In this document: piece by piece, positions 2,354-63,926 of the stretch
Layout: each line of letters starts with the position of its first letter
How positions within the stretch are numbered: position 1 is the stretch's first letter
DNA from: a virus
Direction: 5' to 3' (one strand)
Length of the DNA stretch: 64,000 nt
IMG/VR virus record: IMGVR_UViG_3300023276_001265
The notes under the pieces: generated by a model
What the model was told of the DNA's origin: nothing
The model's database searches: none
The model's input: the letters and a program-made list of their open reading frames with translations, nothing else
Position numbers and translations under genes: made by a program

Positions 2354-3823
2354 TTAGTAGATCGACCCGCGACCCTGCGCCATATCGATCATGCGATTGA
2401 TGGTAAACACCAATGGCTCAGGAGTAGTGGACGACGCTCTAGACGCGTTTTGCTCAGTCTCGGCCGACATCATCGTCTGCCAGAGCTGGGTCAGGTTGGC
2501 GCCCTCAGCGACAAAGCCTTGATCTCTGATCCAAGGCTCTGCGAGAGAAGAGCTGACAATCTCGTGGTAAGCGTCCGGTGCGCCCTTACTGAGGCACTTC
2601 TTGTGGAGCTTCTTGGCCCACGTATCGGTGACCTTCTTGTCCTTCACGGCGGCGCAAGCATGGTCCATTTTGTGACCGAGCTGCTGGAACAGGGACGCAA
2701 CTTTGACGTTGGCGATGGTTTTGTCCATCTTGTCCGGGTCGGCCTTGATGCCCAGAGCCTTCTTATCTGGGGTCTTCTTACCACCCTTTTTGCTCTTGGT
2801 CTTGCTCTTGCTCTTCTTGGCCTCCGCGATCATGCTCTCCATCATGGTCGTCTTCTGGAAGAACCCGTTTGAGGACTTGGAGCGCGTGCGCGTGCGGCGC
2901 TTCTCGTCCCGAATCGCCTCGCTGCGGATCTCGATCTCAGCGGCTTGATCTTTTGGATCCTTCCGCTTACCGCCACCTAGCGCGTTGAGTGGCTCCCTTT
3001 GAAGAAAGGCCCCTTGGCGCATTTTGCCGATGTCGCTGAGGTCGCCGAGAGGCTTCAGAAATGGGCCGACAGATGGGGCACTAGTCGCCTCATGGCGCTG
3101 GTTTGTAGGCACCTCTTGTCGTTGGGCCGCAGTTGCGCCCTGTGCCGGATGTGCGGTGCGCTGGGGCTGACCGGTGGGTTGATCAACATTGGTGGGACCA
3201 GCGCCCTCTGGGACGGCTGATCTCTTAGCAGCTTCCTGGGCGCAGCGCTCTGACTCACAGCCGTGATAGTCCGCCAGCGCAGCATGCGACGAGCGCAGCT
3301 GCTTGAGCATCCCCATCTTCGCCTGGTGCTTCGCTGCAGTGAACGGCAGACCAGCTTTGCTAGCTTCTCCCGCTAGTCTGGTTAGCTCTTCTTCTTCCCT
3401 GCCGCTCTGGTCGGCCAGCGTTGCGTAGTGCTTCTTGAATGCAAGATGCTTGGCCGCTTCGTTCTCGGAGATAACGGGGAGTCCCTTGCGAAGCTCCTGC
3501 TCAAGGCCGAGCATCGCTGTTGCGACGAAGTCCTTGACAGCAAGCGCTTCATCACCAGCCAGGCCATAAAGACCAAGGTCTGGAATGCGGCCCATGCGCA
3601 TCGATGCCTCAACAGCACCGGCGACTACAGCCGGGTCAATCCGGCGATCTTCAGCGAATGCCATAATCTCAGGCATACGGGCTCGAAGAACCAGTTCTCT
3701 GGTGTCCGGGCTCATATCACGGGCGTAACGGCTAAAGCCGCGAACTGGCGCCTCAAGGGGCGAGTTCTCAGAAAGACGACGGCGGAAAGTCGCAGCCGCT
3801 GCGTTGAACTTGTTCTTGCTCAT
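2354..3823 (-). CDS. Hypothetical protein, probable internal head protein
   Basis: 489 aa; L/I-x-E motifs (RLSE, VISE); Lys-rich segment; SD-like GAGG upstream. Confidence 0.7.
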   Translation of the reverse strand: MSKNKFNAAAATFRRRLSENSPLEAPVRGFSRYARDMSPDTRELVLRARMPEIMAFAEDRRIDPAVVAGAVEASMRMGRIPDLGLYGLAGDEALAVKDFVATAMLGLEQELRKGLPVISENEAAKHLAFKKHYATLADQSGREEEELTRLAGEASKAGLPFTAAKHQAKMGMLKQLRSSHAALADYHGCESERCAQEAAKRSAVPEGAGPTNVDQPTGQPQRTAHPAQGATAAQRQEVPTNQRHEATSAPSVGPFLKPLGDLSDIGKMRQGAFLQREPLNALGGGKRKDPKDQAAEIEIRSEAIRDEKRRTRTRSKSSNGFFQKTTMMESMIAEAKKSKSKTKSKKGGKKTPDKKALGIKADPDKMDKTIANVKVASLFQQLGHKMDHACAAVKDKKVTDTWAKKLHKKCLSKGAPDAYHEIVSSSLAEPWIRDQGFVAEGANLTQLWQTMMSAETEQNASRASSTTPEPLVFTINRMIDMAQGRGSIY

Positions 3824-7677: not shown

Positions 7678-8541
7678 GAACTCATTGATCTGATCTGAAT
7701 TTGCCTGGCAAGTCTCGACCAACTCGCCAATTAGTTTATTGAGATGCGCCGTCTCGTTGACGACCAAGTGGGTGTGACCGGCAACGCCAAAGTAGAGATA
7801 TCCCTGGGTGCACGTATCTGCGCTCTGTTGCAGGACGTCCATCTGGAACGCCTTCAGTGATGTCAGCAGGGCCCTTTGATCGGCGAAGGCCTTCTTCTTA
7901 CCCTTGCCCGGCTGGGTCGTGACTTCGTTACCTTCGTCATCCTTTGGGGGACGGCGCTTATCTGGAGAGGCTCCAGTGTTGGCCTGCTCTGATGGTGTCT
8001 TGGAGTTCGAGGATCCGCCGCCGACCTTCGCCTTCTCCACTTCGACCATCGTGTCAATCACTTCTTGGCTGTAACGCTTCTTGAGATCCTCCATTCGCTC
8101 TTCACGAACGAGCATGCGCCGACGCGCAGCCTCAGATGAGATCCCCCACTTGCCAGTGATCTTCTTCTGAAGCTCTGCGTAACGCGTCCGGTTGATCTTG
8201 CCCCGGATGTTGTTCCGCTTAACGCTCCACTCCATGAGCGCTTCTTCGTCCGCATCAGAGAGGTGCTCTTTGACGACGCACGGCATGTGCGTCATCTCAA
8301 GCGCCAGGCACACCTTCTTACGGTGCTCACCACCGAGGAGACGGAACTTTCCTTTGTCCTCCCCCTCAGTGATAGGAACAACCTGTCCAGGCTCATCGAA
8401 CCCGCCGTCCCTGACTGCTTCAAGTAGGGCCGCAAATTCAGGCTCGTCCATCTCGTTCACGTTCCAGTCGCACAAGACTAGAGCATCAACGGGAATTAGA
8501 ACGGCACCCTCCCAGGTTGCGAATGACGCGTTTTTAGACAC
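7636..8541 (-). CDS. ParB/Sulfiredoxin N-terminal domain protein
   Basis: WNVNEM..EFAALLEAVRDGGFDEP..LLGGEHRKKVC..MPCVV. Confidence 0.85.
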   Translation of the reverse strand: MSKNASFATWEGAVLIPVDALVLCDWNVNEMDEPEFAALLEAVRDGGFDEPGQVVPITEGEDKGKFRLLGGEHRKKVCLALEMTHMPCVVKEHLSDADEEALMEWSVKRNNIRGKINRTRYAELQKKITGKWGISSEAARRRMLVREERMEDLKKRYSQEVIDTMVEVEKAKVGGGSSNSKTPSEQANTGASPDKRRPPKDDEGNEVTTQPGKGKKKAFADQRALLTSLKAFQMDVLQQSADTCTQGYLYFGVAGHTHLVVNETAHLNKLIGELVETCQANSDQINEFLISAIKKELPNWQ

Positions 8542-8546
8542 AGGAA

Positions 8547-10532
8547 TTATCTCCGTGGCGACCCAGTGTCGCGACGGCTTTGCCGCGCTGCAGCGTCTTG
8601 GGCGATATTGCGGCTCGGCTTGTCCTTCTTGCCGCTCTCAGCAGCCTTGTGGAGCCCAGTAATCTTGTCCTTGTCGTCGTGCTCAGGCCCGAACCCGGTC
8701 TTGTATTCACTACGACCCTTCTTAGTACCGCCTACGCCGTCATGCGAACCCTTGCACAGACGGTAGAACTCTTTCGGGTCCCGAGCCTGCAGCGCTTGAC
8801 CCGCTTGGCCGAGGTTGCCGTCCTTATCCTTCTGGCAGGCAGGGCGCTCATCGTGGAGATCACCAGTTGGGCGAACATTGATCTGGTGTCCAGACGAGTC
8901 TGCGAATCCGGTGCCCTTTACCTTGTCAATGACGCGCTGACTGGTCTCCTGGTCCTTGTGGTAGGACTTGCCCAGTGAAGCCATAGCTGATGCGTAACCG
9001 CCCTCCTTGGAGACGCGATACCACTTTTGGCGTGGATCCCTATCAGTGTCGCCGACAAAGGCGAACTGATCATCACCGGCCGACCCGCGAGATCCGGCCT
9101 TGCTCTTGTCGGTGTGAAGCATCGCGTCATCGTCTGAGTTGCCGAACGTCGTCGCGTTGGCAAACTTCTTGTTGTTCTTCTTCCCGGAAGAGTGGACGTT
9201 TTCACCTGTGTCGGGGTCCTTGTGGTGGCCCTTCCACTTCGGGTGCTCGTCCTTGCTGTAGCCCTTCGCATCGTCATGCTCGCGATCGCGCGAGGACGGG
9301 TTTGTGAACTGTGCCCGACGGAGCTTGGCAGCCTTTGCCCGTGTTGATCGTTCTGCGTAGTTAGGGTCCGAAGGATCTGTAACCCCTTGGGCCATTCCGT
9401 GCTTGTCCGGTCCTACTTTCTTGCCGGTATCCGGATCAATACGACGAGCTGAGTCGCGGTTTCCACGGCCACGGCCACGGCGCTTACGCTCGTCACTCAG
9501 CGATTGGAAGTCGGCGTTCGCCGATGCTCGATAGCGGGCGTGCTGCTCAGCGTCGTGAGTATCTTCTGGGTGATGGGCCAGAGACCTACGACGATTAGGC
9601 GCCACGAAGGGAGCGGCCTTGGTTGCCTTTCGACCCTTCTCAACGTGTTGCGTCAGGTCATTGAGCGTGTTCTGAAGCGCAGCGACCTTGTCGTGGATGC
9701 TGTCACCGGCCATGGTCTTTTCTGGCATGGCCCCGCTGCCGACCTTGCCTTCTCCACGGCGCTTGGCCATACGGTTCAGTCCGGCCTTACGACCTTGTCG
9801 ATTGCCAGCTGGTGTTTTGTAGACGTCTGCTGGGTCTTCGATCCCCGTTACCTTCTTGGCGCGGGACTTCCGAACACCTTTCAGCTTTCCTTTGATGCGG
9901 TCCGCAACTGCATCGTCGTCAGGAATCGGAGAAGGCTCAGGCCGGTCAGGACCAGGAGTAGGACGACCTAGCCAAGCTGGCCTCTTCGACTTTTTCTTGG
10001 AACCTGGATCGTCATCTAGGGCCTGGGCCCCGGCGCCTGGGGCAGCCGGAGGTGGAGTTCCACCACCACCATCACCACCACCACCACGGGGCGGCTTGTC
10101 CTTCTTGTCCTTCTTCGCCAGGGCCTTCATCTCATCTGGAGACATCCCGATCTTCTTACGGTCATAAGCGATCTTCGGCTTGAACTTGGACGCTTCCGGC
10201 TCCGGCTCACCGGCCGCTGCACGCGCCGCTTTTGCCGCCGCACGCTTTCTGGCCTGCTTAGCCTTGTTCTTCTCGTTCGCCCGGTTCTTAGCCACCTTAC
10301 GGGCGGCTTTGCCTTGAGCAAACTCTTCAGGAGATTGCTTCGGGATAGCCGCCTCCGCCAAGAAGCGAAGCGCGAAGCGCGAGTGTGTCCGACTTAGTCC
10401 TGCTGGGACTGGGGACTGGTGAGCACGTTCAACCAAGCGCATTGCGCCTGATCTACCGAGATCAGTATTGATGCTCTCAAGGATGTTGAGCACGCGAGCC
10501 GCGTGAAATTCCATCTTTGCTGTGTTGGCCAT
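8547..10532 (-). CDS. Large basic, disordered protein; probable internal head or DNA-condensing protein
   Basis: 661 aa rich in K/R/D/G; N-terminal ILE, LVE and LAE candidate cleavage motifs. Confidence 0.7.
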   Translation of the reverse strand: MANTAKMEFHAARVLNILESINTDLGRSGAMRLVERAHQSPVPAGLSRTHSRFALRFLAEAAIPKQSPEEFAQGKAARKVAKNRANEKNKAKQARKRAAAKAARAAAGEPEPEASKFKPKIAYDRKKIGMSPDEMKALAKKDKKDKPPRGGGGDGGGGTPPPAAPGAGAQALDDDPGSKKKSKRPAWLGRPTPGPDRPEPSPIPDDDAVADRIKGKLKGVRKSRAKKVTGIEDPADVYKTPAGNRQGRKAGLNRMAKRRGEGKVGSGAMPEKTMAGDSIHDKVAALQNTLNDLTQHVEKGRKATKAAPFVAPNRRRSLAHHPEDTHDAEQHARYRASANADFQSLSDERKRRGRGRGNRDSARRIDPDTGKKVGPDKHGMAQGVTDPSDPNYAERSTRAKAAKLRRAQFTNPSSRDREHDDAKGYSKDEHPKWKGHHKDPDTGENVHSSGKKNNKKFANATTFGNSDDDAMLHTDKSKAGSRGSAGDDQFAFVGDTDRDPRQKWYRVSKEGGYASAMASLGKSYHKDQETSQRVIDKVKGTGFADSSGHQINVRPTGDLHDERPACQKDKDGNLGQAGQALQARDPKEFYRLCKGSHDGVGGTKKGRSEYKTGFGPEHDDKDKITGLHKAAESGKKDKPSRNIAQDAAARQSRRDTGSPRR

Positions 10533-39209: not shown

Positions 39210-41015
39210 ATGTCGACCACGCTAATTACTGAGCGTCGTGTTCTGATCGACAACCAGGGCGTAGCGCAACTCGCGGCGTCCATCGTTGAATCGGAGGACG
39301 GCGGAGACAAGAAGCTCTTCGCAGAAGGCAAGATCGGACACTGCGACACCCCAACAGCTAACGGGCGCATCTACCCCACTCGACTCATGAACCGTGAGTT
39401 GGACCGCCTTCAGACACGCATCGATGAGTCGTCTCTCTACGCAGCCGTTGATCACCCAGGCGATGGCAAGAGTCGTATCCGCGACACCGGTGCGATCATC
39501 CGTGCCCTCCGCATCGAATCTGACGGAACGATCTTCGGCAAGTTCCAGATCATTGAAGAGACCGACCACGGCCGCAACCTGGCCGCAATTCTTCGCGCTG
39601 GCGGCGCCGTTGGTGTTTCTAGCCGTGGCCTCGGGTCGACCCGCCCACACCACGAGTCCGGCAAAGAGATCGTTGGTGAGGACTTCCGCCTCGTCGCGTT
39701 CGACTTCGTCCTCGACCCCGCAGTCTCCACCGCCTACCCCAAGTTCTTCTCCGAATCAGATGAGGGCATCGCCGAGAACGTCACCTCAGACGATCTTCGC
39801 GCCAAGTTCCCTAGCTTGATCAACTCGATTGAGGAGCAGGCACTCAGCATTGGATCTTCGACCACCGTCGAGGCGATGCGAGTCGAGATGGAGCAAGACG
39901 TCCAGAAGGCACTTGCGGCGAGTCGTGAGACCCTCCGTGAGGACTTCAAGGTCGAGCTCTACCCAGTGGTCGTCAAGGAGCTGAAAGAAGACTTCGCGGC
40001 CAAGCTGGTTCGGGCAACCGCTGGTATCCGCGAAGAGGTCGAAGCCGTCGTCCGCTCTGAGATGGCAGCGGATCCACAGGTCGCTGGCGCCAAGCTCGCT
40101 CTGGAGCAGATCGCCAAGCTCGTGATCCCCTTCAACCCTCCCGTCGACGTCAAGAAGGTCATTGACGAGAAGCATGAGGAAGTTCAGAGCCTCTCCCAGA
40201 ACATCAAGGGCTACCAGGCCAAGCTCGCAGAAGCTGCGGCTGAGAAGGCCGAAGCTGTCGAGCACGCCCGTAACCTCGGCTTCCGCCTCTACGTCTCCGA
40301 GATCACTGCGGGCCGCAGCGATGCGACCACGATCAAAGAGATGGTCGGCGACATTGCCCTTATTACCGACGTCGAGGTTCTTCAGCAGCGCGTTGAGACG
40401 GCGATCAACTCTGCCGACCAGGCTTTGGAAGAGGCGAAATCTGCGGTCCGCGAAGAGCGCGACACTGAGCTCAAGGTTGAGCAGCAGAAGGCCAAGCTCG
40501 CCCAGAAGCGTGCGGACCGTCTCAAGGAAGAAGACTCCGAACTGCGCAAGCAGATGTCAGCTCTCGCTGAGCGCCTTGAAGAGGGCCTCGCCAGTAAGGA
40601 TCGAACGATCTCTAACCTGGCCCAGCAGAACGACGAGATGCAGCAGCGCCTTGGACGGGCCAATCAGCTCGCTGCACAGATGGAGGATCGCTCCTACGCG
40701 TCCACCCGTCTGGCCGGTCACCCAAACCGTCGAGAGCTCCTGGGCCGCATCGAAAGCGGCGAGGTTCGCGGCAAAGAACGAATCAATCAAATCGCCGAAC
40801 ACTCCGACTGGAGTGCGGACGAAATGGGCGCCAAAGAGCGCGTCCGTACGTTCTTCGGCTCAGGCCGGGAGTTCGCCCCCGATCAGGATCGCCGTCGTCA
40901 AGAAGTGATGAACGAGCAGTCCGGCGGTCGTGGAACCCCAGTCCCCAACCTCGAAGGAATGGACATCTCCATGGAGGAGATCAGGACTTTGGGATCTGCA
41001 GGTCGGCGCAGGTAG
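39210..41015 (+). CDS. Prohead protease (T4 gp21-like) fused to a long coiled-coil scaffold (gp22-like)
   Basis: ANGRIYP; VDHPGD; GRNLAAIL..GVSSRGLGS; DFRLVAFDFVLDPA; then ~400 aa of coiled coil. Confidence 0.9.
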   Translation: MSTTLITERRVLIDNQGVAQLAASIVESEDGGDKKLFAEGKIGHCDTPTANGRIYPTRLMNRELDRLQTRIDESSLYAAVDHPGDGKSRIRDTGAIIRALRIESDGTIFGKFQIIEETDHGRNLAAILRAGGAVGVSSRGLGSTRPHHESGKEIVGEDFRLVAFDFVLDPAVSTAYPKFFSESDEGIAENVTSDDLRAKFPSLINSIEEQALSIGSSTTVEAMRVEMEQDVQKALAASRETLREDFKVELYPVVVKELKEDFAAKLVRATAGIREEVEAVVRSEMAADPQVAGAKLALEQIAKLVIPFNPPVDVKKVIDEKHEEVQSLSQNIKGYQAKLAEAAAEKAEAVEHARNLGFRLYVSEITAGRSDATTIKEMVGDIALITDVEVLQQRVETAINSADQALEEAKSAVREERDTELKVEQQKAKLAQKRADRLKEEDSELRKQMSALAERLEEGLASKDRTISNLAQQNDEMQQRLGRANQLAAQMEDRSYASTRLAGHPNRRELLGRIESGEVRGKERINQIAEHSDWSADEMGAKERVRTFFGSGREFAPDQDRRRQEVMNEQSGGRGTPVPNLEGMDISMEEIRTLGSAGRRR

Positions 41016-41073: not shown

Positions 41074-42510
41074 ATGATGTTTCAAGCAAGACAAATGCTG
41101 ACAGAGAACATGGATGGTGTTGCTCTGTCGGACGACAGTGTGGTCGGCGCCTACACGCGCAAGTGGGCCCCGGTACTAGAGGGCATGGAGCACGAGATCG
41201 CGGATTTCGTTCCTCCAGGCCATACCTCCTACGTGAAGAGCATCGCTGCCTTCATGCTGGAAAACGAGAGTAAGCACCTTCGCCGTCTCTCTGAGGAAAC
41301 CCGCGCCTTGTCGGTCGGCCCATTCCTCAAATTCGTTTTCCCCGTTATCAGGCGAACCGCGATTCGCTTGGTTGCAACCTCGATCGCATCGGTCCAGCCC
41401 ATGACGGGCCCGATCGGTGGCATCGCGTTCTACCGTCCTCGCTACGCTTCTGACAAGGGTCAGATCACGGCTGGCACGGAGATGAACAAGAACTTTAACC
41501 GCTGGTATTCCAGCAACTTCATCGACGGCGAGCCGTTCGGCACCGGCGATGGCGTTACTGCTACCTTCACGGGTGCCCTCAAGTGGCCTCCAGTGATCGG
41601 CGGAACGGTTCAGATTCGCACCCAGGCTGGCGGAACGGCTGTCCTCGCGGTTGACGCCGGTGGCACCTTCACCGCTCTGGCTGGCGCCATGGCTGGTGGT
41701 TCTGGAACCATCAACTACACCACGGGCACCGTCACCCTCAACTTCGGAACCGCGCCTGCGCTCGGTGACACGGTCGAGGTCTTCTACCGGTACAACAACG
41801 AGCTCAACGCTCGTATCCCGGAAGTTCAGCTGGACATCACGATCCAGGAGATCCAGGCCGAGAGCCGCAAGCTCAAGAGCCTCGCCAGCGTCGAAGCCGC
41901 TGATGACCTCCGCGCCCTCTGGGGCCGTGACGTCGATGCGGACCTGGTCGCCCAGATGTCCGATGAGATGACCGCTGAAATCGATCGCGAGATCGTCGGC
42001 ACGATTCTTAACGGTGTCGAGTCTGCCGCCATTGTCCCTTGGGACCGTGCGACACCTTCGGCCGTTTCGGATCCTGAGCACCTCAAGTCGCTCGTGATCC
42101 GCATGTCGACTGCCTCGCAGGTCATTCACCGTCGCACCCAGCGTGCACCGGCCAACTGGGCGATCACCTCGTCTGAGGTCGCTGCTCTTCTGGAGACGAT
42201 GGAAGGCTTCTCGGCGATTGACGAAGGTCACGTCTACCAGGGCGGCATCAGCAAGGCTGGTGTTCTCAACCGCAAGTGGGTCATCTACGTTGATCCTGTC
42301 TTCCCGCAAGACAAGATCCTCATGGGGTATCAAGGACCAAGCATCCTCGATACGGGCGTCATCTACTCGCCCTACATCCCGATGGAGATCACGCCGAACT
42401 TCGTTGATCCAAATGACATGTCGCTGAGGCGTGCCATCCGGACCCGACACAAGATCTCGATGGTTCGTCCTGAATTCTTTTCTATGGTTAACATCACAAA
42501 CCTTGTCTAG
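41074..42510 (+). CDS. Major capsid protein (T4 gp23-like)
   Basis: KWAPVLEG; SVQPMTGPIGGI; AESRKLK; EAADDLRA; EIDREI; YSPYIP; RTR motifs. Confidence 0.95.
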   Translation: MMFQARQMLTENMDGVALSDDSVVGAYTRKWAPVLEGMEHEIADFVPPGHTSYVKSIAAFMLENESKHLRRLSEETRALSVGPFLKFVFPVIRRTAIRLVATSIASVQPMTGPIGGIAFYRPRYASDKGQITAGTEMNKNFNRWYSSNFIDGEPFGTGDGVTATFTGALKWPPVIGGTVQIRTQAGGTAVLAVDAGGTFTALAGAMAGGSGTINYTTGTVTLNFGTAPALGDTVEVFYRYNNELNARIPEVQLDITIQEIQAESRKLKSLASVEAADDLRALWGRDVDADLVAQMSDEMTAEIDREIVGTILNGVESAAIVPWDRATPSAVSDPEHLKSLVIRMSTASQVIHRRTQRAPANWAITSSEVAALLETMEGFSAIDEGHVYQGGISKAGVLNRKWVIYVDPVFPQDKILMGYQGPSILDTGVIYSPYIPMEITPNFVDPNDMSLRRAIRTRHKISMVRPEFFSMVNITNLV

Positions 42511-42552
42511 GCAAGGGGTTAGGTCCTAGACCTGACCAGTGTGACCAAGAAG

Positions 42553-42579
42553 AAGCCCACCCTTCGGGGTGGGCTTTTT
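42553..42579 (+). terminator. Rho-independent terminator, possibly bidirectional
   Basis: AAGCCCACCC-TTCG-GGGTGGGCTT followed by TTT. Confidence 0.9.
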
Positions 42580-42584
42580 CGCAT

Positions 42585-43445
42585 CTACAGGTGTTTCCAG
42601 GATCGCTGATATTTGATGTCGCCGATGGTAGCCGAGTGGACGCCGAACTCTTTGGCCAAGACGATGTTCTTCTCGCCGGAATTCAATCGCTCGCGGATTG
42701 CTATTACGTCCTCCGGCTGCAGCTTAGCCTTTCCGGCAGATGCGCCGCGTGCCTTTCGGCCTCGGCCACGCGCATACATGTCCTCAAGGTTCTTGCGCTG
42801 TGTCCCGCCGACTAGGTGCTGTGGGTTCACGCACCACGGTTCATCACATTCGTGAAGAACGAACAGTCCGTGCCCATATCCATTCGCGAGGGCGTAGCTG
42901 ATCTTGTGGGTATCGACCGTTTTCCCGGAGATCCGAAGCACTCCATAGCCTCGACCATCAGCGAACTGATTCTTCCTGGTGGCACCGATCCATAGCCAGC
43001 ACTCGTCTGGGGCTCCTTTATCGACGTAGGACCAGAACCTGTCCTCGTCAGGACCAGTGAGCTCAGGGATGGGCTTAGTAGGTCTGTGCGGCCTGTAGAC
43101 CTTCGGCTTGGCCGTGCCCTTACGCCAGTGGCGGCCCGCAGCCACCATCTGCTGCATATTTTGTAGGTGCGTTCCAGGGCTCAGGTGAGCAGGATTGCAG
43201 CAGGACCTAACGTGGCAGCTGTGGAGCGCGTCTAAGGGCCCCAGGACCTTACCGTTGCCGAGGATGTAGGCCACGCGGTGCGCTCGGTAGAGCTTTTTCC
43301 TGACCCTCCAGAGGCCATACCCGTGGGCCTTGCTCTTGGCGATCCACGGCCAGCACTGATCGGGCCGCAGTTTCTGCACCTTAGCCCAGAATCGTGCTTC
43401 TTCTTGAGATTCGAGCTCTAGGAGGATACTCTCGCTGGCAGCCAT
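42585..43445 (-). CDS. HNH homing endonuclease with two tandem HNH (His-Cys box-like) domains and a C-terminal HTH
   Basis: RFWxxV..CWxW..GYG..HxxxY..LHxCxxxxCxNPxHL, twice; LAKEFGV..WKH. Confidence 0.9.
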   Translation of the reverse strand: MAASESILLELESQEEARFWAKVQKLRPDQCWPWIAKSKAHGYGLWRVRKKLYRAHRVAYILGNGKVLGPLDALHSCHVRSCCNPAHLSPGTHLQNMQQMVAAGRHWRKGTAKPKVYRPHRPTKPIPELTGPDEDRFWSYVDKGAPDECWLWIGATRKNQFADGRGYGVLRISGKTVDTHKISYALANGYGHGLFVLHECDEPWCVNPQHLVGGTQRKNLEDMYARGRGRKARGASAGKAKLQPEDVIAIRERLNSGEKNIVLAKEFGVHSATIGDIKYQRSWKHL

Positions 43446-43529
43446 GTGGACCCTCTCCGGTCTGCTGGTCAGGGCCGGTATAAGGTGTTAGCGCACCTTT
43501 CCCGGCTCGTCCTATGGGTATAACACATC

Positions 43530-44540
43530 ATGGGCTTAATAGACATGACAGGGAAGAGGTACGGCAGTCTCCTAGTGGTCAAGCGAGTCGATCCTCCTCC
43601 GGAAGCTGGGCTCTACATAAGGCAGCACGCACACTGGCTGTGCGTATGCGACTGCGGCAACGAGAAGGTCATCCCAGGTCGCCACATGAGAAAAAATGGC
43701 GTCCGGACGTGCGGGCATGATCTTAGTGAACGTAGGTCGGCGGCCCGCCGAGACCACGGTCTGACATATACCGTGGAATGGTATACCTGGAGTGGGATGA
43801 GCGCTCGTTGCTACAACCCAAACAGTGCGTCTTATGGGCGGTATGGTGGTCGCGGAATCAGGGTGTGCGACCGCTGGAGGGGGAAGAATGGGTTTCGCAA
43901 CTTCTACGAAGACATGGGAAAGCGCCCGTCCGATAAGCATTCAATAAATCGCATCGACAACGACGGCAATTACACTCTCAAGAACTGCGAGTGGGCGACT
44001 GACACAGAACAGGCTAACAACAAGAGCTCCAACCGCCGACTTACACTTGGTGATGAAACGCACACACTCACCGAGTGGGCTCGCATAAAGAGCACGAAAC
44101 CGCACGTGTTCTACAATAGACTGAACGCGGGGTGGTCTGTTGAGAAGACGCTGACTACCCCGGCCCGCGTTAATGTCATGAACCGTAGGCTGACTGCAGA
44201 CGAAGTTCGCGAGATCAAGGCCTGGCTGCGAGACAATCCAGCCAAGAAGGACGTAGATATCGCCGGTGTCTATGGAGTCAGCATCGACACCATCGCGAAT
44301 GTTCGGACAGGAAAAGCATGGGACCACGTTGTAGTTGAGGGATTTACTCCGCACAGGAAGATCCCAGTCTTCTCTGGTGAGAACAACCCTCGCGCAAAGA
44401 TGAACTGGGCCAAGGTCAGAGAGGTTCGAGCACGAGCCGCACAGGGAGAGAAGGTGTCTGATCTAGCGGAAGAGTTCAAGGTGGGTCGCTGGATCATCAG
44501 TGACATCGTAAATCTACGAACATGGAAAGAGGCCAGATGA
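43530..44540 (+). CDS. HNH homing endonuclease with two C-terminal HTHs
   Basis: DMTGKRYG..WLCVCDCG; YGGRGIRVCDRW; SINRIDNDGNY..NCEWAT..QANN. Confidence 0.9.
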   Translation: MGLIDMTGKRYGSLLVVKRVDPPPEAGLYIRQHAHWLCVCDCGNEKVIPGRHMRKNGVRTCGHDLSERRSAARRDHGLTYTVEWYTWSGMSARCYNPNSASYGRYGGRGIRVCDRWRGKNGFRNFYEDMGKRPSDKHSINRIDNDGNYTLKNCEWATDTEQANNKSSNRRLTLGDETHTLTEWARIKSTKPHVFYNRLNAGWSVEKTLTTPARVNVMNRRLTADEVREIKAWLRDNPAKKDVDIAGVYGVSIDTIANVRTGKAWDHVVVEGFTPHRKIPVFSGENNPRAKMNWAKVREVRARAAQGEKVSDLAEEFKVGRWIISDIVNLRTWKEAR

Positions 44541-44564
44541 TTCTCTGGCACTGCAGCCTCTCTG

Positions 44565-44594
44565 AGCATGGTCAACATCACAAACCTTGTCTAA
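44565..44594 (+). pseudogene. Displaced duplicate of the major capsid gene 3' end
   Basis: AGC ATG GTC AAC ATC ACA AAC CTT GTC TAA versus TCT ATG GTT AAC ATC ACA AAC CTT GTC TAG. Confidence 0.85.
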
Positions 44595-44613
44595 CCGACG
44601 GTCGGCGATTGCG

Positions 44614-44641
44614 AAAGGTCACCCTTCGGGGTGGCCTTTTT
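44614..44641 (+). terminator. Rho-independent terminator, paralogous to 42553-42579
   Basis: AAAGGTCACCC-TTCG-GGGTGGCCTTTTT. Confidence 0.9.
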
Positions 44642-44652
44642 GCATGTACGGA

Positions 44653-44922
44653 CTAGAGATTCAGTGAGCGATGGAACAGGAACGACTCGTTGCTCAGAAG
44701 GATCGCTCTGGCGGACTCCATGAACTCCCTGATTGGGGCATCAGGGAATCTCTTTTCCAACATGGATACCTGCTCCTCAGACTGAGCTATGGCGGATGGA
44801 TCCGGCACTAGGGAGACCATAGCTGTGAGCATGACCTGACAGCGAAGGCACATCGGCTCTTCAGTGACCGGAGGGAGAAGGTCGGCTTCGTTTCCGCAAT
44901 CGCACGTTTGTGGTTGATTCAT
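44653..44922 (-). CDS. Small Cys-containing hypothetical protein
   Basis: CDC..CLRC; TATAAG 5 nt before the ATG. Confidence 0.55.
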   Translation of the reverse strand: MNQPQTCDCGNEADLLPPVTEEPMCLRCQVMLTAMVSLVPDPSAIAQSEEQVSMLEKRFPDAPIREFMESARAILLSNESFLFHRSLNL

Positions 44923-44951
44923 GTCTTCTTATACCCAGCCTTCGGTGGGGG

Positions 44952-45110
44952 GCTCCCCAGGAACCCGGCGCTCCCCAGGGAACCTGAATCCGCTCCCCAG
45001 GGAGCGCGACTAGTCCTGAGCTAGGCGCGACTAGTCCTGGCCGATTCCGGCTGATTCCGGCCAAACGCGGCTAGCCACGGCTAGCCACGGCTGGCTGCGG
45101 CTGGCCCGAC
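44952..45110. repeat. Intergenic cluster of short direct repeats
   Basis: GCTCCCCAGG x3 (44952, 44970, 44992); GCGCGACTAGTCCTG x2 (45004, 45025); GATTCCGG x2; CGGCTAGCCA x2; CGGCTGGC x2. Confidence 0.85.
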
Positions 45111-45146
45111 TAACCGTAATCCACGAGTTAAGTTAATAAGCACGAA

Positions 45147-45162
45147 TGGCACGGATCCTGCG
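45147..45162 (+). promoter_or_regulatory. sigma54-type -24/-12 promoter
   Basis: TGGCACGGATCCTGCG gives GG-N10-GC with TGGCACG, ending 45 nt before the ATG at 45208. Confidence 0.6.
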
Positions 45163-45207
45163 TCTTGGTTTGGTGATTTAGTAAACACCAACAGATACCA
45201 GGATCTC

Positions 45208-45846
45208 ATGCACCTCTCCCTTTCCTTTTCCCAAGACCTCTCCTATCGGCAAGAACTACGACTTGATCAACGACTCACACTGACCCAACGACTAATAGTC
45301 GAGGAGCGGATGCTCGCCAAGCGCCTGCTGCTAATCAAGAGAGTCCACGACATCAAATACAGGCTCTGGTGCGAGTGCGATAACTGCGGCCGGATGATCA
45401 AACCCATCGATATCCTGAAAGGCTTCAGCAACGACGTCACCGACACGAGGACTGCGTGCCCTAGATGCGGGAACAAGACACAGCCGAGACTGCTCGGCAA
45501 GGTCCAGGAGACAGGACGCTACAACTTCGCCTTCTATTGCCCAGAGCAGACGCTAGACAGGCTGGTGGACCTCGGCAGCGTGCCGTTCTATCAGCTTGAG
45601 CGAGACTACACTGATGTCCTACACTCTGCGGTCGTCCACTTCGGGAACATCTCCGCCGCCTACAAGCGGATCGGAATTGATTACGAAGTGCCAGCAATTC
45701 CGGACTGGAAACGGAGAGCTAGGCCGGTCCTTGGACTGCTGCCGGATAAGCAGATCGCCGACATAGTCGGAACAACCGTATACCAGATCAGAAAGCTGAG
45801 GAAGCGGTTCAAGATCGCCGGATTCAGCAAACGAAAGCTGCTGTGA
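45208..45846 (+). CDS. Zn-ribbon/HTH regulator with an RpoN Region I-like N-terminus
   Basis: LSLSFSQDLSYRQELRLDQRLTLTQRL; CDNC and CPRC; LPDKQIADIVG..RKLRKRFKI..SKRK. Confidence 0.65.
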   Translation: MHLSLSFSQDLSYRQELRLDQRLTLTQRLIVEERMLAKRLLLIKRVHDIKYRLWCECDNCGRMIKPIDILKGFSNDVTDTRTACPRCGNKTQPRLLGKVQETGRYNFAFYCPEQTLDRLVDLGSVPFYQLERDYTDVLHSAVVHFGNISAAYKRIGIDYEVPAIPDWKRRARPVLGLLPDKQIADIVGTTVYQIRKLRKRFKIAGFSKRKLL

Positions 45847-45860
45847 AGGTAGAACACTGT

Positions 45861-45995
45861 ATGGAAGATCACAAAGAATCCTGTCACTGCACGTGCCACG
45901 AACCTTACGAGACGTTCGATAGGGGCGATCTCTGCAGTGATGGGACCAGCTACTGGTGCGATCCCTGCTGGCAGAGCACGTGCGAGAACGGGTAG
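45861..45995 (+). CDS. 44-aa Cys-rich miniprotein
   Basis: MEDHKESCHCTCHEPYETFDRGDLCSDGTSYWCDPCWQSTCENG*; fills the gap between genes; GAAGGT upstream. Confidence 0.5.
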   Translation: MEDHKESCHCTCHEPYETFDRGDLCSDGTSYWCDPCWQSTCENG

Positions 45996-46000
45996 GGTCC

Positions 46001-46609
46001 TTAGCGTGCCATCCGATCGACAACGTGAACGGTGCCGGTGAGCGGGATCCAGTCGGACAAGCGCTCTCCCTGGGAGTTCTTCAGAAGGTTATTTGACCGG
46101 ACCGCTGGCACTCCGTGAGCCGACCCTATCGTCACGTGCTTGTCCGGCTTGTTCGAGAGGTGGTTAAGTCCTCGAACTCGCCCTGCTTCGATCTCGTCGT
46201 TTGCAGCGCGGTGAGTTACGTGGAAGTTAACCTGCTGACCGATGTGCTTGGAGAGCGCTTTCTTATGTTCATCCGTAAGATGTTGACCTGGAGGAACAAT
46301 CGTCACATGATCGCCCTGCACATTGGCGTGCTTCGGAGGGACGCCATTAAGCAGTCGTTGCTTAGATTTAGGCGACAAGGTGACCGCGACGTGATGTCGA
46401 GCTGGATCGTAGTGCGCTAGACTCGGATGAACTGGCTGCGAGGGTGCGCCTGGCTTAGTTCTAGGCTCTCTAGGACGACTGGGCCCAACCGGACGCCTAT
46501 GCGGCGCCCCTGATGGAGATACGGCTTCAACTGAAACATGATTCAGCGGGGACCTGAATAACTGATTCAGCAGAATCAGAGGAGTTCTACCTGTACGAGG
46601 TCCTACCAT
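46001..46609 (-). CDS. 2H phosphoesterase (cyclic phosphodiesterase, tRNA-ligase CPD-like) with an N-terminal tag
   Basis: Two HxT motifs (DHVTI, KHVTI); AVRSNNLL..LTGTV; N-terminus GRTPLILL..LFRSPL. Confidence 0.75.
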   Translation of the reverse strand: MVGPRTGRTPLILLNQLFRSPLNHVSVEAVSPSGAPHRRPVGPSRPREPRTKPGAPSQPVHPSLAHYDPARHHVAVTLSPKSKQRLLNGVPPKHANVQGDHVTIVPPGQHLTDEHKKALSKHIGQQVNFHVTHRAANDEIEAGRVRGLNHLSNKPDKHVTIGSAHGVPAVRSNNLLKNSQGERLSDWIPLTGTVHVVDRMAR

Positions 46610-46660: not shown

Positions 46661-46746
46661 GATAGGCTAAGATGAGCTGATGCTCGCACAAAACTTCAAT
46701 CTTATTGAAGGTTCGCTCTACCGGTCCCCTCTAAGGCTGATGGAAG
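46661..46746 (+). repeat. 86-bp exact direct repeat, copy 1 (promoter plus tag codons)
   Basis: Identical to 47714-47799. Confidence 0.95.
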
Positions 46747-47713: not shown

Positions 47714-47799
47714 GATAGGCTAAGATGAGCTGATGCTCGCACAAAACTTCAATCTTATTGAAGGTTCGCTCTACCGGTCCCCTCTAAGGCTGATGGAAG
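47714..47799 (+). repeat. 86-bp exact direct repeat, copy 2
   Basis: Identical to 46661-46746. Confidence 0.95.
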
Positions 47800-48875
47800 G
47801 ATCCCCATCTGGATATTGGGACCATGAGAAAGAGGACTGGGTCCTTAACACCCCTAAGAGCCCCGCCACAGTGGCACGCGAAAAGGCAGAAATGGCTGCC
47901 AACACGAAGGCTTTTTACGACAACATGCGAGCGAATGAAACGCCCGAGGACAAGAAGAGACGCGCCCACGACCTCGGCTACCATCATGCTGTTCGCGGAC
48001 ATGAGCAGGACCCTAGCGCCTCCGATAACCAAGAGGCCTATATGGCCGGGTTCGAGGCGGCTAGAGGGAAGCACATTCCTGGGCTTCCTCCTAGCCTACG
48101 CCGAGACCTTGGCGGGCACTCCGGCATGCCCCGCTCCCGCCAGCACAAAAGTTTGATAGCGCTGCGTGACGCTTACGGTGATGATGGCCTTGCACGGACA
48201 ATGCGTGAGACGGGAGAGACCGCCGTTAAGGAACTAAAACAGTCTCGCCCAGAGCTCCAACTCGGTGATGAGCTCGGCTGCGGCAAGTTCGGCTGCGTCT
48301 ACAGGGCCCCTCCGCTATCAGATGGCACGGAGGCGATCATGAAGATCGATAGAGGCCTTGATGAAGGTGTGCTCGCTGAGGCCGTAATGCGAGACCCTGT
48401 CCTCAGCAAGCTCTCGTCCCTCCCGCGCTTTGGAAGCGTTACACCATTAAGTACTAATGACCCAGTGATGAAAAGAGGGGTAACGGCGATCCATCGAGAG
48501 AACCTTCGTGACCTTAACGCTGATGACCCACAGGAAAAGCAGCTTCAAGCATTCTTCGGGAATTGGTACCGGCCGTCCGGATTTGGACGGCATCTGAACG
48601 ACATTCTCCTTTACATGAGAGCAAAAAGGGGCATGGGTCGAGAGGACTACCTGCGCGGTTACGACGAGTTAATAAAGGAGGAACGACAACGGGCGGCTAA
48701 GAGCTTCGAGCCCCATGTAGGGGAACAGTTCGAGCGTGTCGCAGCTGATGTGCGTGAGCTTGTATCGCGAGGTGTGGTGCCGTGTGACCTTCATGAGGAT
48801 AATTGGGGAATTCGCCACAGTACCGGCGAGATTGTGATGCGCGATGTAGGCTGCGCTAAGGTGGCCGATGACTAG
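47733..48875 (+). CDS. Ser/Thr protein-kinase-like enzyme with tag and RMF-like hairpin
   Basis: LGCGKFGCVY; IMKI..E; CDLHEDNWG; RDVG. Confidence 0.85.
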   Translation: MLAQNFNLIEGSLYRSPLRLMEGSPSGYWDHEKEDWVLNTPKSPATVAREKAEMAANTKAFYDNMRANETPEDKKRRAHDLGYHHAVRGHEQDPSASDNQEAYMAGFEAARGKHIPGLPPSLRRDLGGHSGMPRSRQHKSLIALRDAYGDDGLARTMRETGETAVKELKQSRPELQLGDELGCGKFGCVYRAPPLSDGTEAIMKIDRGLDEGVLAEAVMRDPVLSKLSSLPRFGSVTPLSTNDPVMKRGVTAIHRENLRDLNADDPQEKQLQAFFGNWYRPSGFGRHLNDILLYMRAKRGMGREDYLRGYDELIKEERQRAAKSFEPHVGEQFERVAADVRELVSRGVVPCDLHEDNWGIRHSTGEIVMRDVGCAKVADD

Positions 48876-50526
48876 GCCCCTACTAAATCTGATAGAAGGG
48901 TCACTCTACCGGTCCCCTCTGAGACTGCTGGAAGCGCTGCAGGGCGAGCGTAAGCGCTCGTGGGACCTCGGCTATCGCCACTTCAAGAGATACGGGCCTG
49001 ATGGCTTCGATGACAGTAAGGCCGTTGACAAGGCCGCTTACAAGGTCGGATTTGATGGCGCAAGAGAGGAAGCCTCACAGGGAGCCTCACAAAGCGGACT
49101 TCGCGAGGTAAGCCGCGCTTCAGCTGTCCAAACACTGAAAGCCCTTCCGAGGGGTCTTCTGGCTGGATGGTTCAGGAACGCGGACCGAAAATACAAGGCC
49201 ATGCTCCTGAACCACATCAAGAAGAATCCAGAGGTTCGGAACGCCGGGCTGAACATCATGCACCAGGAATACCAGTCCATGACCAGGTCTCAGGTGCCGT
49301 TTGATGAGTTCATGGACACCCCCATCAGAATGTATCGAGGGGGTGGATCTCCTGCGGACGAGGCAGCCACGTCCTATTCCATGGACCAGAAGGTCGCCGA
49401 CTCATTCGTAGACCGGAAGGGCGCTGGTCTGTCTGTGATAGAGATCAAACCAAGGGATACCCTTGGGTCCTATCAGACCACCGCTGAGACTGAGGTTTTG
49501 ATTCCCTCGTGGGAAGGGAAGGACTTCATGGACGGTGACCCGCAGTTTAGAGGCCGCTCGAACTATGAGCTCCAGGCTGCAATCGGGGACACGAAGGCAG
49601 AACTGCGTCAGGACCGAAGCAGGTTGCCTGAGCTAAAAGCTCGCCACGGGGCCCTTCGTAACGAGCTCAAGGTTAGAGCTGCATCTGGCCATCAGAGCGT
49701 GAACCCTTACGATGTAGACCTGGAAGACGAGCGTAGAGAAGACGCGTGGGAACTAGGACGGTCTCACCGCGTAGACGGTCTCCCTAGAGACCCTGATCAC
49801 GCCGATGTCCGGCACAAAGGAGGTTATGAGGAAGGGTATAGTTCCGCCGAGATGAGTAGGGGTCAATTCCCCCAGGCTTCATGGGATGCAGGGCATGCTG
49901 CTGCCGATGCTGGAGAACTGGCCGATCGCCACCATCCGGACGTAGAAGATCCCAATGTCTACTTGAATGGCTACATGGCCAGTATGAATAAGCGCCCAGA
50001 TCCAAGGACGTCCGATCCGAACTATACCTATACGCCAGCCAACGATAACTATTACGACGTCGACCCAAATGATCACATCCAGCTACTAATTGATAGGTGG
50101 CAACAGGAGGAGCAGAGGCCTCGTCACGGAATAGGTCCTTTAATGGTTCCAGTTCACGAACTTTGGCCACACCGAGAGTATCTGCGCAACCCTGAACACA
50201 GTCGCGGTGGCGCCGAGCATTGGCATCAACTGAAGAAGAAGATGTCAGATGAGGGGTGGAATTCAGAGGAACCACTCGAACTACGCGTAGGCAGCGACGG
50301 GGGTGTGAAGATCGGCGAAGGAAATCACCGGCTGGCTATATCGAGAGAGCTAGGAGTCGACAAGGTGCCCGTTGATGTCGTCTACGATATAGGGCGTGTG
50401 ACGAAGAGTCCCCAGTCAACGCGTAGGACGCTCCCTAAAGAGAAGCCTCCAGAGTGGATGACCAAGGAACCCGGACCAGATAGCGATGAAGACCCGTTGA
50501 TTAAAGAACTATCAGGCCTATTTTGA
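48868..50526 (+). CDS. Multidomain protein: tag, RMF-like hairpins x3, ADP-ribosyltransferase-like domain, ParB/Srx domain
   Basis: R-S-E pattern MYRG..TSYS.D..VA..F..ETEVL; IGEGNHRLAISRELGVDKVPV. Confidence 0.75.
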   Translation: MTRPLLNLIEGSLYRSPLRLLEALQGERKRSWDLGYRHFKRYGPDGFDDSKAVDKAAYKVGFDGAREEASQGASQSGLREVSRASAVQTLKALPRGLLAGWFRNADRKYKAMLLNHIKKNPEVRNAGLNIMHQEYQSMTRSQVPFDEFMDTPIRMYRGGGSPADEAATSYSMDQKVADSFVDRKGAGLSVIEIKPRDTLGSYQTTAETEVLIPSWEGKDFMDGDPQFRGRSNYELQAAIGDTKAELRQDRSRLPELKARHGALRNELKVRAASGHQSVNPYDVDLEDERREDAWELGRSHRVDGLPRDPDHADVRHKGGYEEGYSSAEMSRGQFPQASWDAGHAAADAGELADRHHPDVEDPNVYLNGYMASMNKRPDPRTSDPNYTYTPANDNYYDVDPNDHIQLLIDRWQQEEQRPRHGIGPLMVPVHELWPHREYLRNPEHSRGGAEHWHQLKKKMSDEGWNSEEPLELRVGSDGGVKIGEGNHRLAISRELGVDKVPVDVVYDIGRVTKSPQSTRRTLPKEKPPEWMTKEPGPDSDEDPLIKELSGLF

Positions 50527-61638: not shown

Positions 61639-61654
61639 TCCGCGAAACCAACTA

Positions 61655-61680
61655 GAAAGCGCCCCAAAGGCGCTTTCGTT
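61655..61680 (+). terminator. Probable terminator hairpin
   Basis: GAAAGCGCC-CCAAA-GGCGCTTTC, weak U tail. Confidence 0.55.
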
Positions 61681-61708
61681 ATGTACAGAGATCCGCTAGG
61701 GTTTACCC

Positions 61709-62008
61709 ATGTTCCACAACTACCAGACTAAAGAAGACATCCAGGCGATCATTATCGACGCGCTCGTCTCGATGGACCGACCATCGTTGATGGTCGAAGT
61801 GTCGTCATGGGCCTGGCATCGAACACTGATCGATGGGACCGCAGACACTGTCCGCCAAACCATCAAAGTAGAGATGGCCCACATGCAGAATGTCGGCGTC
61901 CTCGATACTGTCTTTCGTAGAGGTGCCGGTTACGGGATCTACTTCGTCATCCAATGCCCATTGTCCGCGATTGCAATCAAGCAGGTACAGCAAAACAGCC
62001 AGGCATAA
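61709..62008 (+). CDS. Hypothetical protein
   Basis: 99-aa ORF. Confidence 0.5.
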   Translation: MFHNYQTKEDIQAIIIDALVSMDRPSLMVEVSSWAWHRTLIDGTADTVRQTIKVEMAHMQNVGVLDTVFRRGAGYGIYFVIQCPLSAIAIKQVQQNSQA

Positions 62009-62611: not shown

Positions 62612-63331
62612 ATGGGCATGACCGAAGACGAAATCAAGGCTTACGTTCTCCGACGCCTGGGCTCTGGCATCATTGACGTCGAGCTGACTGGCGCTATGCA
62701 GAATGACGTCATCAAGGACACCAAGCGCTGGTTTGGATTCCGTGTTGGCCAGAAGCGAGTGGTCCAGATTCCGCTCACAACAGCTACTAACGTCTACATC
62801 CTCGAACCGGACGTAACTGAAGTTCTGCGGGTGTTCCTACCGTCATCCCACTTTCCAGCTGTGGATACAGACGACTTCTCTTACACCTATTCGCTCCTAT
62901 TCGGACAATGGCGCTCCCCAGGAGCATCACCAATGCCGTATTCCGACCTCATTCAGCGCCTCCAATACCTGAATGTGAGCAAGAGGATCTTTTCTGCGGA
63001 CCGTGAATGGACCTATGACAGGGACACGCATGAGCTTCAGATCATGCCCCGCCCATCCATCGTGGGCAACGCGCTGATCGAGGTGTGGACTAAGGACATC
63101 GATACGCGTCAATTCGGCCCAGAAGACGAGGACATCTTCCTTCGCTACTCACTGGCGCACTCTAAGACGTTCCTCGGTGAGATCCGATCGAAGTACGACA
63201 GCATGTCTATGGTCGGAGGGGATCGGAGCCTGAACGGTGAATCCCTGCTTGAGGCTGCTAAAGCGGAGAAGGAGCAGCTTGAGAAGGACGTGATTAACTG
63301 GAGGAGAGCTACCCCACTCATCATGGAGTAG
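62612..63331 (+). CDS. Neck/head-completion protein (T4 gp13-like)
   Basis: IKAYVLRRLG..IDVELT; LGEIRSKY..LNGESLL.AAKAEKEQLE. Confidence 0.85.
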   Translation: MGMTEDEIKAYVLRRLGSGIIDVELTGAMQNDVIKDTKRWFGFRVGQKRVVQIPLTTATNVYILEPDVTEVLRVFLPSSHFPAVDTDDFSYTYSLLFGQWRSPGASPMPYSDLIQRLQYLNVSKRIFSADREWTYDRDTHELQIMPRPSIVGNALIEVWTKDIDTRQFGPEDEDIFLRYSLAHSKTFLGEIRSKYDSMSMVGGDRSLNGESLLEAAKAEKEQLEKDVINWRRATPLIME

Positions 63332-63884
63332 AGTCGTTTATATGAGCAAGTGGAGACCAATTCCTGGGTTTGACGGTTACTGCGCTTCTGCGGATGGGGA
63401 GATTTTCTCTGCAAAGAGGAACGTAGTAATGAAGCCTCAGAAGATGTCGAACAAACACAACGCTCGCCATCTTTACGTGGGACTCTACCTAGGTAAAGGG
63501 CGGCGCATGCGCCGTGGGGTGCATCAACTTGTGGCATTAACTTACCTGGACCCCAAGCCGACCACGGAGCACGAGGTCAACCACATCAACGGCGATCCGA
63601 CGGACAACCGGTCGACGAATCTGGAATGGCTCACCAGGGCTGAAAATGAGGCGCACGCTGTAGTCAATAGGCTCAAGGCCAGCGGTAAGCGACATGGCAG
63701 GAGCACGAAACCAGAACGAACGGCACGCGGCACGCGGCATGGCCGATCTAAGATCACCGAGGACATCGTTAGGGAGATCAGAACTTTCAGAGAAGAAGGA
63801 GTAACCGAGCCGGTATTGGCAGAGAGGTTTGGAATCTCCAGATCGCTGGTAGGTCAGATCGGGCGCTGTGAGATCTGGAAACAC
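63290..63884 (+). mobile_element. HNH cassette with a replacement 3' end of the neck gene (boundaries approximate)
   Basis: VINWRRATPLIME* encoded at 63290-63331 and 63885-63926 with different codons. Confidence 0.8.
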
Positions 63885-63926
63885 GTAATCAACTGGCGCC
63901 GTGCAACTCCTTTGATCATGGAGTGA
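63342..63926 (+). CDS. NUMOD4-HNH homing endonuclease with C-terminal HTH
   Basis: WRPIPGFDGY..S..G.I; VHQLVA..VNHINGDPTDNRSTNLEW.T..EN. Confidence 0.92.
   Translation: MSKWRPIPGFDGYCASADGEIFSAKRNVVMKPQKMSNKHNARHLYVGLYLGKGRRMRRGVHQLVALTYLDPKPTTEHEVNHINGDPTDNRSTNLEWLTRAENEAHAVVNRLKASGKRHGRSTKPERTARGTRHGRSKITEDIVREIRTFREEGVTEPVLAERFGISRSLVGQIGRCEIWKHVINWRRATPLIME

Follow-up and report, generated by a model that had tools for sequence, protein, structure and literature searches.

A displaced end of the major capsid protein gene beside HNH-type genes in a phage with a T4-type head module

The closest described counterpart of the locus presented here is found in fungal mitochondria, namely the mORFs of Allomyces macrogynus (atp6) and Glomus (atp6, atp9, cox2, and nad3), where an endonuclease gene lies between an inserted working end and a displaced native end of a gene that stays functional (PMC3630166). 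In phages, comparison is invited by (i) the T4-type Seg and Mob homing endonucleases, (ii) one-sided homing, documented experimentally in T4 together with its illegitimate junctions (PMC2988022, citing Parker 1999), and (iii) the PeSL cassettes of T4-type phages. The present analysis concerns a stretch of viral DNA of 64,000 nucleotides (nt) (IMG/VR virus record IMGVR_UViG_3300023276_001265), hereafter called the window, in which the end of the major capsid protein gene occurs twice, on either side of an antisense HNH endonuclease gene (HNH-A), a conserved promoter-like region (P), and a second HNH-type gene (HNH-B).

Like in the mORFs, the gene remains functional and the displaced native copy, hereafter the orphan, matches the gene ends of relatives and keeps its native downstream context. 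Unlike in the mORFs, it is a phage capsid gene that is affected, with a repeat of 26–30 nt that is nearly identical instead of diverged; the inserted piece brings a complete terminator, the first of the nuclease genes runs antisense, and no nuclease open reading frame (ORF) is fused in phase with the capsid gene, since a stop codon, the terminator, and the antisense gene intervene; besides, the displaced terminator appears to be reused here for a swappable gene slot. As for the Seg and Mob endonucleases (PMC2988022), a nuclease gene adjoins a conserved essential gene and is patchily distributed among relatives. As in one-sided homing of T4, homology would exist on one side only and lead to junctions at variable resection points; the T4 events were experimental and involved introns, whereas the present junctions are natural ones maintained in several lineages, with a predicted target. 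As in PeSL cassettes, variable genes of a hyperplastic region stand between conserved promoter and terminator motifs, and it is to these motifs that differences between relatives map; unlike in these cassettes, one arm is a coding piece of an essential gene, promoter and terminator do not form a single compact repeated unit, and nuclease genes are constant companions. Literature searches did not retrieve any phage case in which a displaced gene end next to a nuclease is described, which is not proof that none exists.

Anatomy of the duplicated capsid gene end

A head module of T4 type is encoded in the window, with the prohead protease gene (39210-41015) followed by the Gp23-family capsid gene. 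From the latter onwards, the features are as follows (aa, amino acids).

41074-42510, plus strand: major capsid protein gene, Gp23 family, complete, 478 aa (Pfam PF07068, E 3e-58), with a natural C-terminus
42481-42510, plus strand: working copy of the gene end, SMVNITNLV and stop (repeat core 42484-42509)
42511-42584, plus strand: spacer 1 and terminator 1 (stem 42553-42576)
42585-43445, minus strand: HNH-A, 286 aa, two HNH_3 domains and a C-terminal helix-turn-helix (Pfam HNH_3, E 9e-13, two stretches)
43446-43529, plus strand: region P, 84 nt, conserved and promoter-like, heading a variable gene slot (15-mer exact in 20 loci)
43530-44540, plus strand: HNH-B, 336 aa, PHROG "HNH endonuclease" family, C-terminal helix-turn-helix (phrog_374, E 3.5e-55)
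44541-44564, plus strand: linker of 24 nt without similarity to the capsid gene, then the sharp left edge of the displaced copy
44565-44594, plus strand: displaced (orphan) copy of the gene end (repeat core 44568-44593), in the frame of HNH-B, with the HNH-B stop intervening
44595-44651, plus strand: spacer 2, terminator 2, and GCATGTACGG motif, the former capsid 3' untranslated region, collinear with the functional flanks of relatives

The capsid protein terminates in EFFSMVNITNLV, directly before the stop, and this is the natural end in more than 20 relatives. A preliminary description, made from the DNA letters, had reported that SMVNITNLV and its stop are encoded twice, 2084 bp apart, and this is confirmed: at that offset, the two cores are identical at 25 of 26 bases, and a BLAST search with the last 90 nt of the capsid gene against the surrounding 24 kb recovered the orphan at E 1e-7 and no second match. 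Outside these cores, the copies differ only in their flanks and in the three codons before the repeat; the Ser codon is TCT in the working copy vs. AGC in the orphan and the stop TAG vs. TAA, the translation being the same. The working copy is preceded by GAA TTC TTT TCT, codons unlike those of all relatives. Codon bias, which had been proposed to tell the two ends apart, does not separate them, as the capsid gene uses TCT 6 times, AGC 7 times, GTT 15 times, and GTC 20 times. An assembly artefact is excluded because the same DNA is present at 100% identity in four independent assemblies (L042, L067, L068, and L069); this very identity between assemblies of the same phage leaves no allelic polymorphism to be used.

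Both copies are followed by a hairpin with a TTCG loop and a run of T, the two terminators (42553-42579 and 44615-44641) matching at 24 of 27 bases. In plus-strand folding, terminator 1 reached −28.8 kcal/mol (z −6.1) and terminator 2 −23.5 kcal/mol (z −4.1), no shuffled sequence being as stable. Folded as the minus strand, terminator 1 still gave −24.1 kcal/mol and could thus end transcripts from either side, those of the capsid gene as well as those of the convergent HNH-A. Stop codon and hairpin are separated by unrelated spacers in the two copies (42 nt vs. 15 nt), spacer 1 resembling those of relatives L001, L004, and L016. That related terminators follow both ends and are themselves followed by GCATCTAC and GCATGTAC, respectively, was correctly described before, with the proviso that part of the likeness between these two motifs is incidental because the CTA of the first is the stop codon of HNH-A on the minus strand. 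A terminator was found behind the capsid gene in every relative, with or without a nuclease gene; the idea of a special device insulating the nucleases from capsid transcription is therefore abandoned, and the terminator of the capsid gene is considered an ordinary 3' region carried along rather than an added insulator. Each locus has the GCATGTACGG motif a single time, immediately after the capsid terminator, except that in the window and in L024 it lies kilobases downstream. Elsewhere in the window, a second hairpin followed by TATGTAC occurs at about 61640-61690, upstream of a gene at 61709, and the composite of terminator and ATGTAC is therefore not confined to the capsid flank.

The two HNH genes seen earlier between the copies are indeed two genes of nuclease type, HNH-A on the minus and HNH-B on the plus strand. 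HNH-A matches PHROG endonuclease families (E 8e-55) and, upon reading of its sequence, shows a His/Asn motif in both halves; it combines an intact nuclease domain with a DNA-binding module in the manner of free-standing homing endonucleases. The double-domain HNH_3 architecture is also encountered in L019, L026, and L008, and relatives of HNH-A include a full-length match in L020 (43% aa identity) and the gene of L070, where the flank spanning it is 74% identical in nt. In L072, the orthologue (2783-3515) is split by an internal deletion into pieces of 65 and 162 aa, as in a decaying homing nuclease gene. N-terminal remnants of 16–25 codons, the rest of the gene being gone, were found in L004 (4685-4756), L024 (12056-12130), and L017 (5844-5908); those of L004 and L024 adjoin P, and that of L017 sits elsewhere, between two other genes.

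No Pfam match was obtained for HNH-B. Its AF2 model (pLDDT 82) displays a clear C-terminal helix-turn-helix, and VIA-align of this model returned a weak match to the PacI nuclease (Z 5.2, residues 70-165); Foldseek of the model against PDB gave nothing at E≤0.001 and a profile search of PDB sequences nothing relevant. Relatives of HNH-B are at most 47% identical and occur in unrelated contexts. The large PHROG "HNH endonuclease" family to which it belongs (phrog_374/3377) has an invariant Arg at the position of the catalytic His and no Pfam model.

Empty sites, recurrence, and the variable gene slot

Capsid 3' flanks were gathered from viral and metagenome contigs and by exact-protein look-ups, giving ~22 distinct lineages of the clade, and each lineage was scanned for a second copy of its own capsid gene end. 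Spacer, hairpin, and GCATGTACGG motif of the orphan correspond, at every column of the alignment, to the 3' flanks of working capsid genes in L060, L054, L002, and L041. In L017 and L018 (92% capsid identity), which have no intact HNH gene, a single end copy is present, and capsid end, terminator, and GCATGTACGG are followed at once by homologues of the 50- and 202-aa genes of the window (45843-46609). Collinear flanks and single-copy arrangement together identify the orphan as the stranded original end of a capsid gene once placed as that of L017, the working end having come with the nuclease block. The preliminary description had suggested as much, and had named relatives devoid of HNH genes yet retaining both copies as one observation that would speak against it; L017 and L018 carry one copy only.

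At least four further lineages also have displaced capsid ends. The second copy matches at 26 of 26 positions in L014 (E 1e-10), which with L001 is closest to the window (98–99% capsid identity), and at 29 of 30 in L039 (E 5e-11); in both, it lies, as EFF...ITN, between the capsid terminator and an antisense HNH-A-like gene, followed in L039 by an HNH-B-like gene. In L019, a split and decayed copy comes after a two-domain HNH gene, just before P. The loci L070, L071, and L072 hold two copies, each directly behind a small non-nuclease ORF headed by its own copy of P, and the spacer and terminator following the second copy are 77.5% identical to the orphan region of the window. A possible remnant in L024, ahead of the displaced terminator and motif 5.9 kb downstream, is at 13 nt too short to count alone. 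In the ~16 remaining lineages, no second end copy was detected with E<0.05. The right-hand breakpoints all fall within the last ~12 codons (~22 in L019), and an exact start at the ATG of Met471 is shared by the window, both L070 copies, and the second L019 piece. An HNH_3 gene or remnant is present in every orphan-bearing locus with enough flank, the flank of L014 being too short to tell.

More broadly, about 10 of the 22 lineages, among them relatives with only 68–71% capsid identity, have an HNH_3 gene as the immediate 3' neighbour of the capsid gene, in either orientation; in the remainder, it is absent, decayed, or replaced. Such patchy presence beside a conserved essential gene is what is expected of a free-standing homing endonuclease. 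Across the clade, nuclease genes of at least four kinds occupy the capsid 3' flank, namely (i) HNH_3, (ii) an HNH_4-type nuclease paired with a helix-turn-helix protein in L004 (2499-4684), L024 (9630-11677), and L062, (iii) GIY-YIG, by a weak match of the gene in the P slot of L060 (7089-7982), and (iv) the HNH-B type, carried by the window and L039. The duplicated end is nonetheless no obligatory part of the nuclease element: relatives of HNH-A occur without a second copy in L002, L060, and L073.

The variable gene slot is headed by region P, whose 15-mer (43475-43489), exact in 20 loci, is always downstream of the capsid gene. P is 83–92% identical where the neighbouring genes differ, its core being far better conserved than the flanking genes, and comprises boxes resembling TTGACG and TATAG as well as what may be an interrupted hairpin (GCCGG...CCGGC). 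In most relatives, it is followed by a shared AGGAG leader, instead of which HNH-B-type genes have their own GGTATAAC leader. The genes behind P vary by lineage, i.e., HNH-B, two small ORFs, a 73-aa ORF, a 297-aa gene, or a 1149-aa gene, and HNH-B is therefore viewed as a tenant of a variable slot within an older HNH-A block; the earlier suggestion that one HNH gene invaded the cassette of the other agrees with such a later arrival. On the best reading, the displaced terminator now closes this swappable slot behind its conserved promoter.

A codon pattern is seen at the common breakpoint. Directly before it, and thus before Met471, TTT TCN or TTC AGC is found in eight of eight full-length lineages with an HNH_3 gene directly 3', and TTC TCG (the L017/L054 type) in the five scored lineages without (5/5). 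This pattern is taken as a lead towards a possible cleavage site and not as a result.

A probable nuclease-associated origin and its alternatives

Anatomy, empty site, recurrence, and breakpoint clustering are shown by the comparisons described above, whereas the cutting nuclease, its cleavage site, and the route of repair are inferred. The capsid 3' flank would be a hotspot of nuclease-associated recombination, for which a nuclease-initiated route is the probable account, albeit by no means an assured one. A homing nuclease encoded beside the capsid gene would break the DNA of a co-infecting relative within the last ~12 capsid codons; the broken left end would be repaired by homologous copying from the donor capsid gene, through the donor end and into the nuclease block, and the copied strand would be joined illegitimately to the right end of the recipient, at or near the break. 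The right junction would be illegitimate because the hypervariable downstream region offers no homology, which exists on the capsid side only. The product would be a block of ~2.06 kb between gene body and orphan, comprising replacement end, spacer, terminator, antisense HNH-A, P, and HNH-B; the orphan region (44565-44651) would be the remainder of a second parental capsid gene, i.e., its last nine codons and whole 3' untranslated region. The capsid gene would stay intact since it now ends in donor sequence, the block bringing a spare end and a terminator. The old end of the recipient would be stranded, its terminator closing the gene behind P, and P and the orphan could from then on act as swapping arms.

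Several observations weigh against this account. The two copies share bases absent from the working ends of all relatives (ACA being rare, CTT unique) while their flanks are unrelated, and these shared derived bases would be accounted for more readily by crossover or gene conversion inside the repeat than by a junction that is purely illegitimate; they suggest a later PeSL-like event of this type within the repeat, and the tandem units of L070 point likewise. The orphans of L070 directly follow non-nuclease genes, which also speaks against the duplicated end as an obligatory part of a nuclease element. As to the codon pattern, partial loci agree with it except L040, and the association with HNH genes amounts on the capsid tree, built without the last 60 nt of a gene that is mosaic, to 2–4 independent contrasts, all concordant and not significant. 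Besides, the orphan of the window carries AGC, otherwise seen in genomes bearing HNH, and a single sensitive allele (TTC TCG) therefore fails to explain the event in the window. In HNH-B, Arg occupies the canonical HNH His position and is invariant in 32 homologues; HNH-B is therefore a putative nuclease, so named from its family annotation. Finally, divergence over the last 106 nt of the capsid gene exceeds that of the 330 nt before them 2–3 times, whichever pair is compared. Against L017, it rises from 7% to 32% over these 106 nt (p 8e-10); as the elevation is common to all pairs and not a trait of L017, no specific co-conversion tract can be claimed.

The nuclease-initiated route is nevertheless placed ahead of its alternatives because the anatomy fits one-sided repair, the shared derived bases and L070 fitting it less. 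Should it hold, the locus would offer natural evidence from several lineages that selfish nucleases reshape the surroundings of the most conserved phage gene and leave the gene unharmed, and that what remains of such events, a terminator and a short arm of homology, comes to serve as infrastructure when genes are exchanged. The locus would also yield a target prediction, namely ~30 bp around capsid Met471, for an uncharacterised family of two-domain HNH_3 nucleases and, for annotators, mark short in-frame echoes of gene ends near nuclease genes as recombination joints. More tentatively, coding-end fragment, terminator, and P may together form a standing docking site of a cargo slot, which homing nucleases would open by cutting the TTC-TCG/ATG junction, the synonymous TTT-TCN/TTC-AGC being immunity alleles, and where unrelated genes such as HNH-B, the small ORFs, or the 1149-aa gene would be exchanged via P and tail arms; if true, homing and PeSL-like shuffling would be merged into one system.

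The same ingredients could have been assembled by modular shuffling of PeSL type independent of any nuclease, which we regard as unlikely. The tail with its terminator and P would then be repeated regulatory arms, with homologous exchange, or integration of small circles via the 26-nt tail, stacking cassettes; PeSLs and mini-circles are documented (PMC2839356). L070, with P twice (8385-8460 and 8870-8930) and two tails, provides two tandem cassettes of P, small ORF, and tail with non-nuclease cargo, and the slot content differs among the window, L070, L024, L002, and L060 while P and terminator are conserved; a Campbell-type crossover inside the tail would moreover explain shared derived bases with differing flanks. 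The window, however, has two terminators and P only once, the breakpoints cluster at one site instead of spreading across the repeat, and nuclease genes or remnants accompany every orphan-bearing block with enough flank; how a fragment of coding sequence came to serve as a repeat is left unexplained.

Still less probable is a purpose-built element, i.e., a mobile unit of spare gene end, terminator, and nucleases inserted nine codons before the capsid stop. The geometry matches, the mORFs set a precedent (PMC3630166), and HNH-B is in the frame of the orphan; yet HNH-B has its own stop 8 codons before it, and a shared frame is a one-in-three chance. Besides the HNH-A relatives lacking an orphan behind the capsid gene of L002, L060, and L073, orphan length and position vary among lineages, and the upstream ORFs of L070 overlap the orphan out of frame. 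A clean case does exist in the window at 62612-63926, where a neck-type gene and the next, 194-aa HNH gene both end in the same 13 residues, VINWRRATPLIME, before the stop. As at the capsid gene, a gene end is duplicated around an HNH gene, but at the neck gene the nuclease ORF runs on into the 13 displaced codons, the gap measuring 10 nt and a terminator being absent, whereas terminator, antisense nuclease gene, and promoter intervene at the capsid gene; the neck gene is thus a cleaner phage example of the mORF-like pattern than the capsid gene. At the capsid gene, in contrast to the neck gene, no nuclease ORF reads into the displaced end.

Last, a group I intron or intein in the capsid gene, with the downstream copy as second exon, is highly improbable: capsid introns with HNH genes are reported for other phages (PMC3706429), and Bacillus phage SP-15 has a split capsid gene, but the capsid ORF of the window is already complete where the insert begins, the supposed intron would have to contain a strong terminator as well as an antisense gene, searches of 42300-44800 gave no intron family at E≤1 and, for known RNA families, sub-threshold terminator-like matches only, and a Pfam search found no intein domain.

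The phage and the surroundings of the block

The phage is known from metagenomes only. Megablast of the region against 50,697 phage records gave no match, and the best match of its capsid protein was 35%; members of the capsid cluster are found on contigs of up to 400 kb, some of which are binned with Nitrospira metagenome-assembled genomes. In the prohead protease gene of the relatives of the L002 group, an intein is present (Hom_end_hint, LAGLIDADG; L055 2123-4945), giving 940 aa vs. 601 aa in the window, where the intein site is empty (39474-39477).

Immediately downstream of the orphan region, the window contains one further block.

44652-45848, strand mixed: extra block of an 89-aa gene (minus strand) and a 212-aa gene (plus strand), absent from L017/L018

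In L017 and L018, the homologue of the 50-aa gene (45843-45995) immediately adjoins the motif, and relative to them the block is a precise 1.2-kb insertion between GCATGTACGG and GTAGAACA. Homologues of its two genes were not found in the fetched loci, nor relatives of the 212-aa gene in viral contigs. Further downstream, an 86-bp exact repeat (46661-46746 and 47714-47799), with a third copy 62% identical (48849-48934), spans the starts of paralogous genes and represents another repeated regulatory or 5' cassette in the same hypervariable region.

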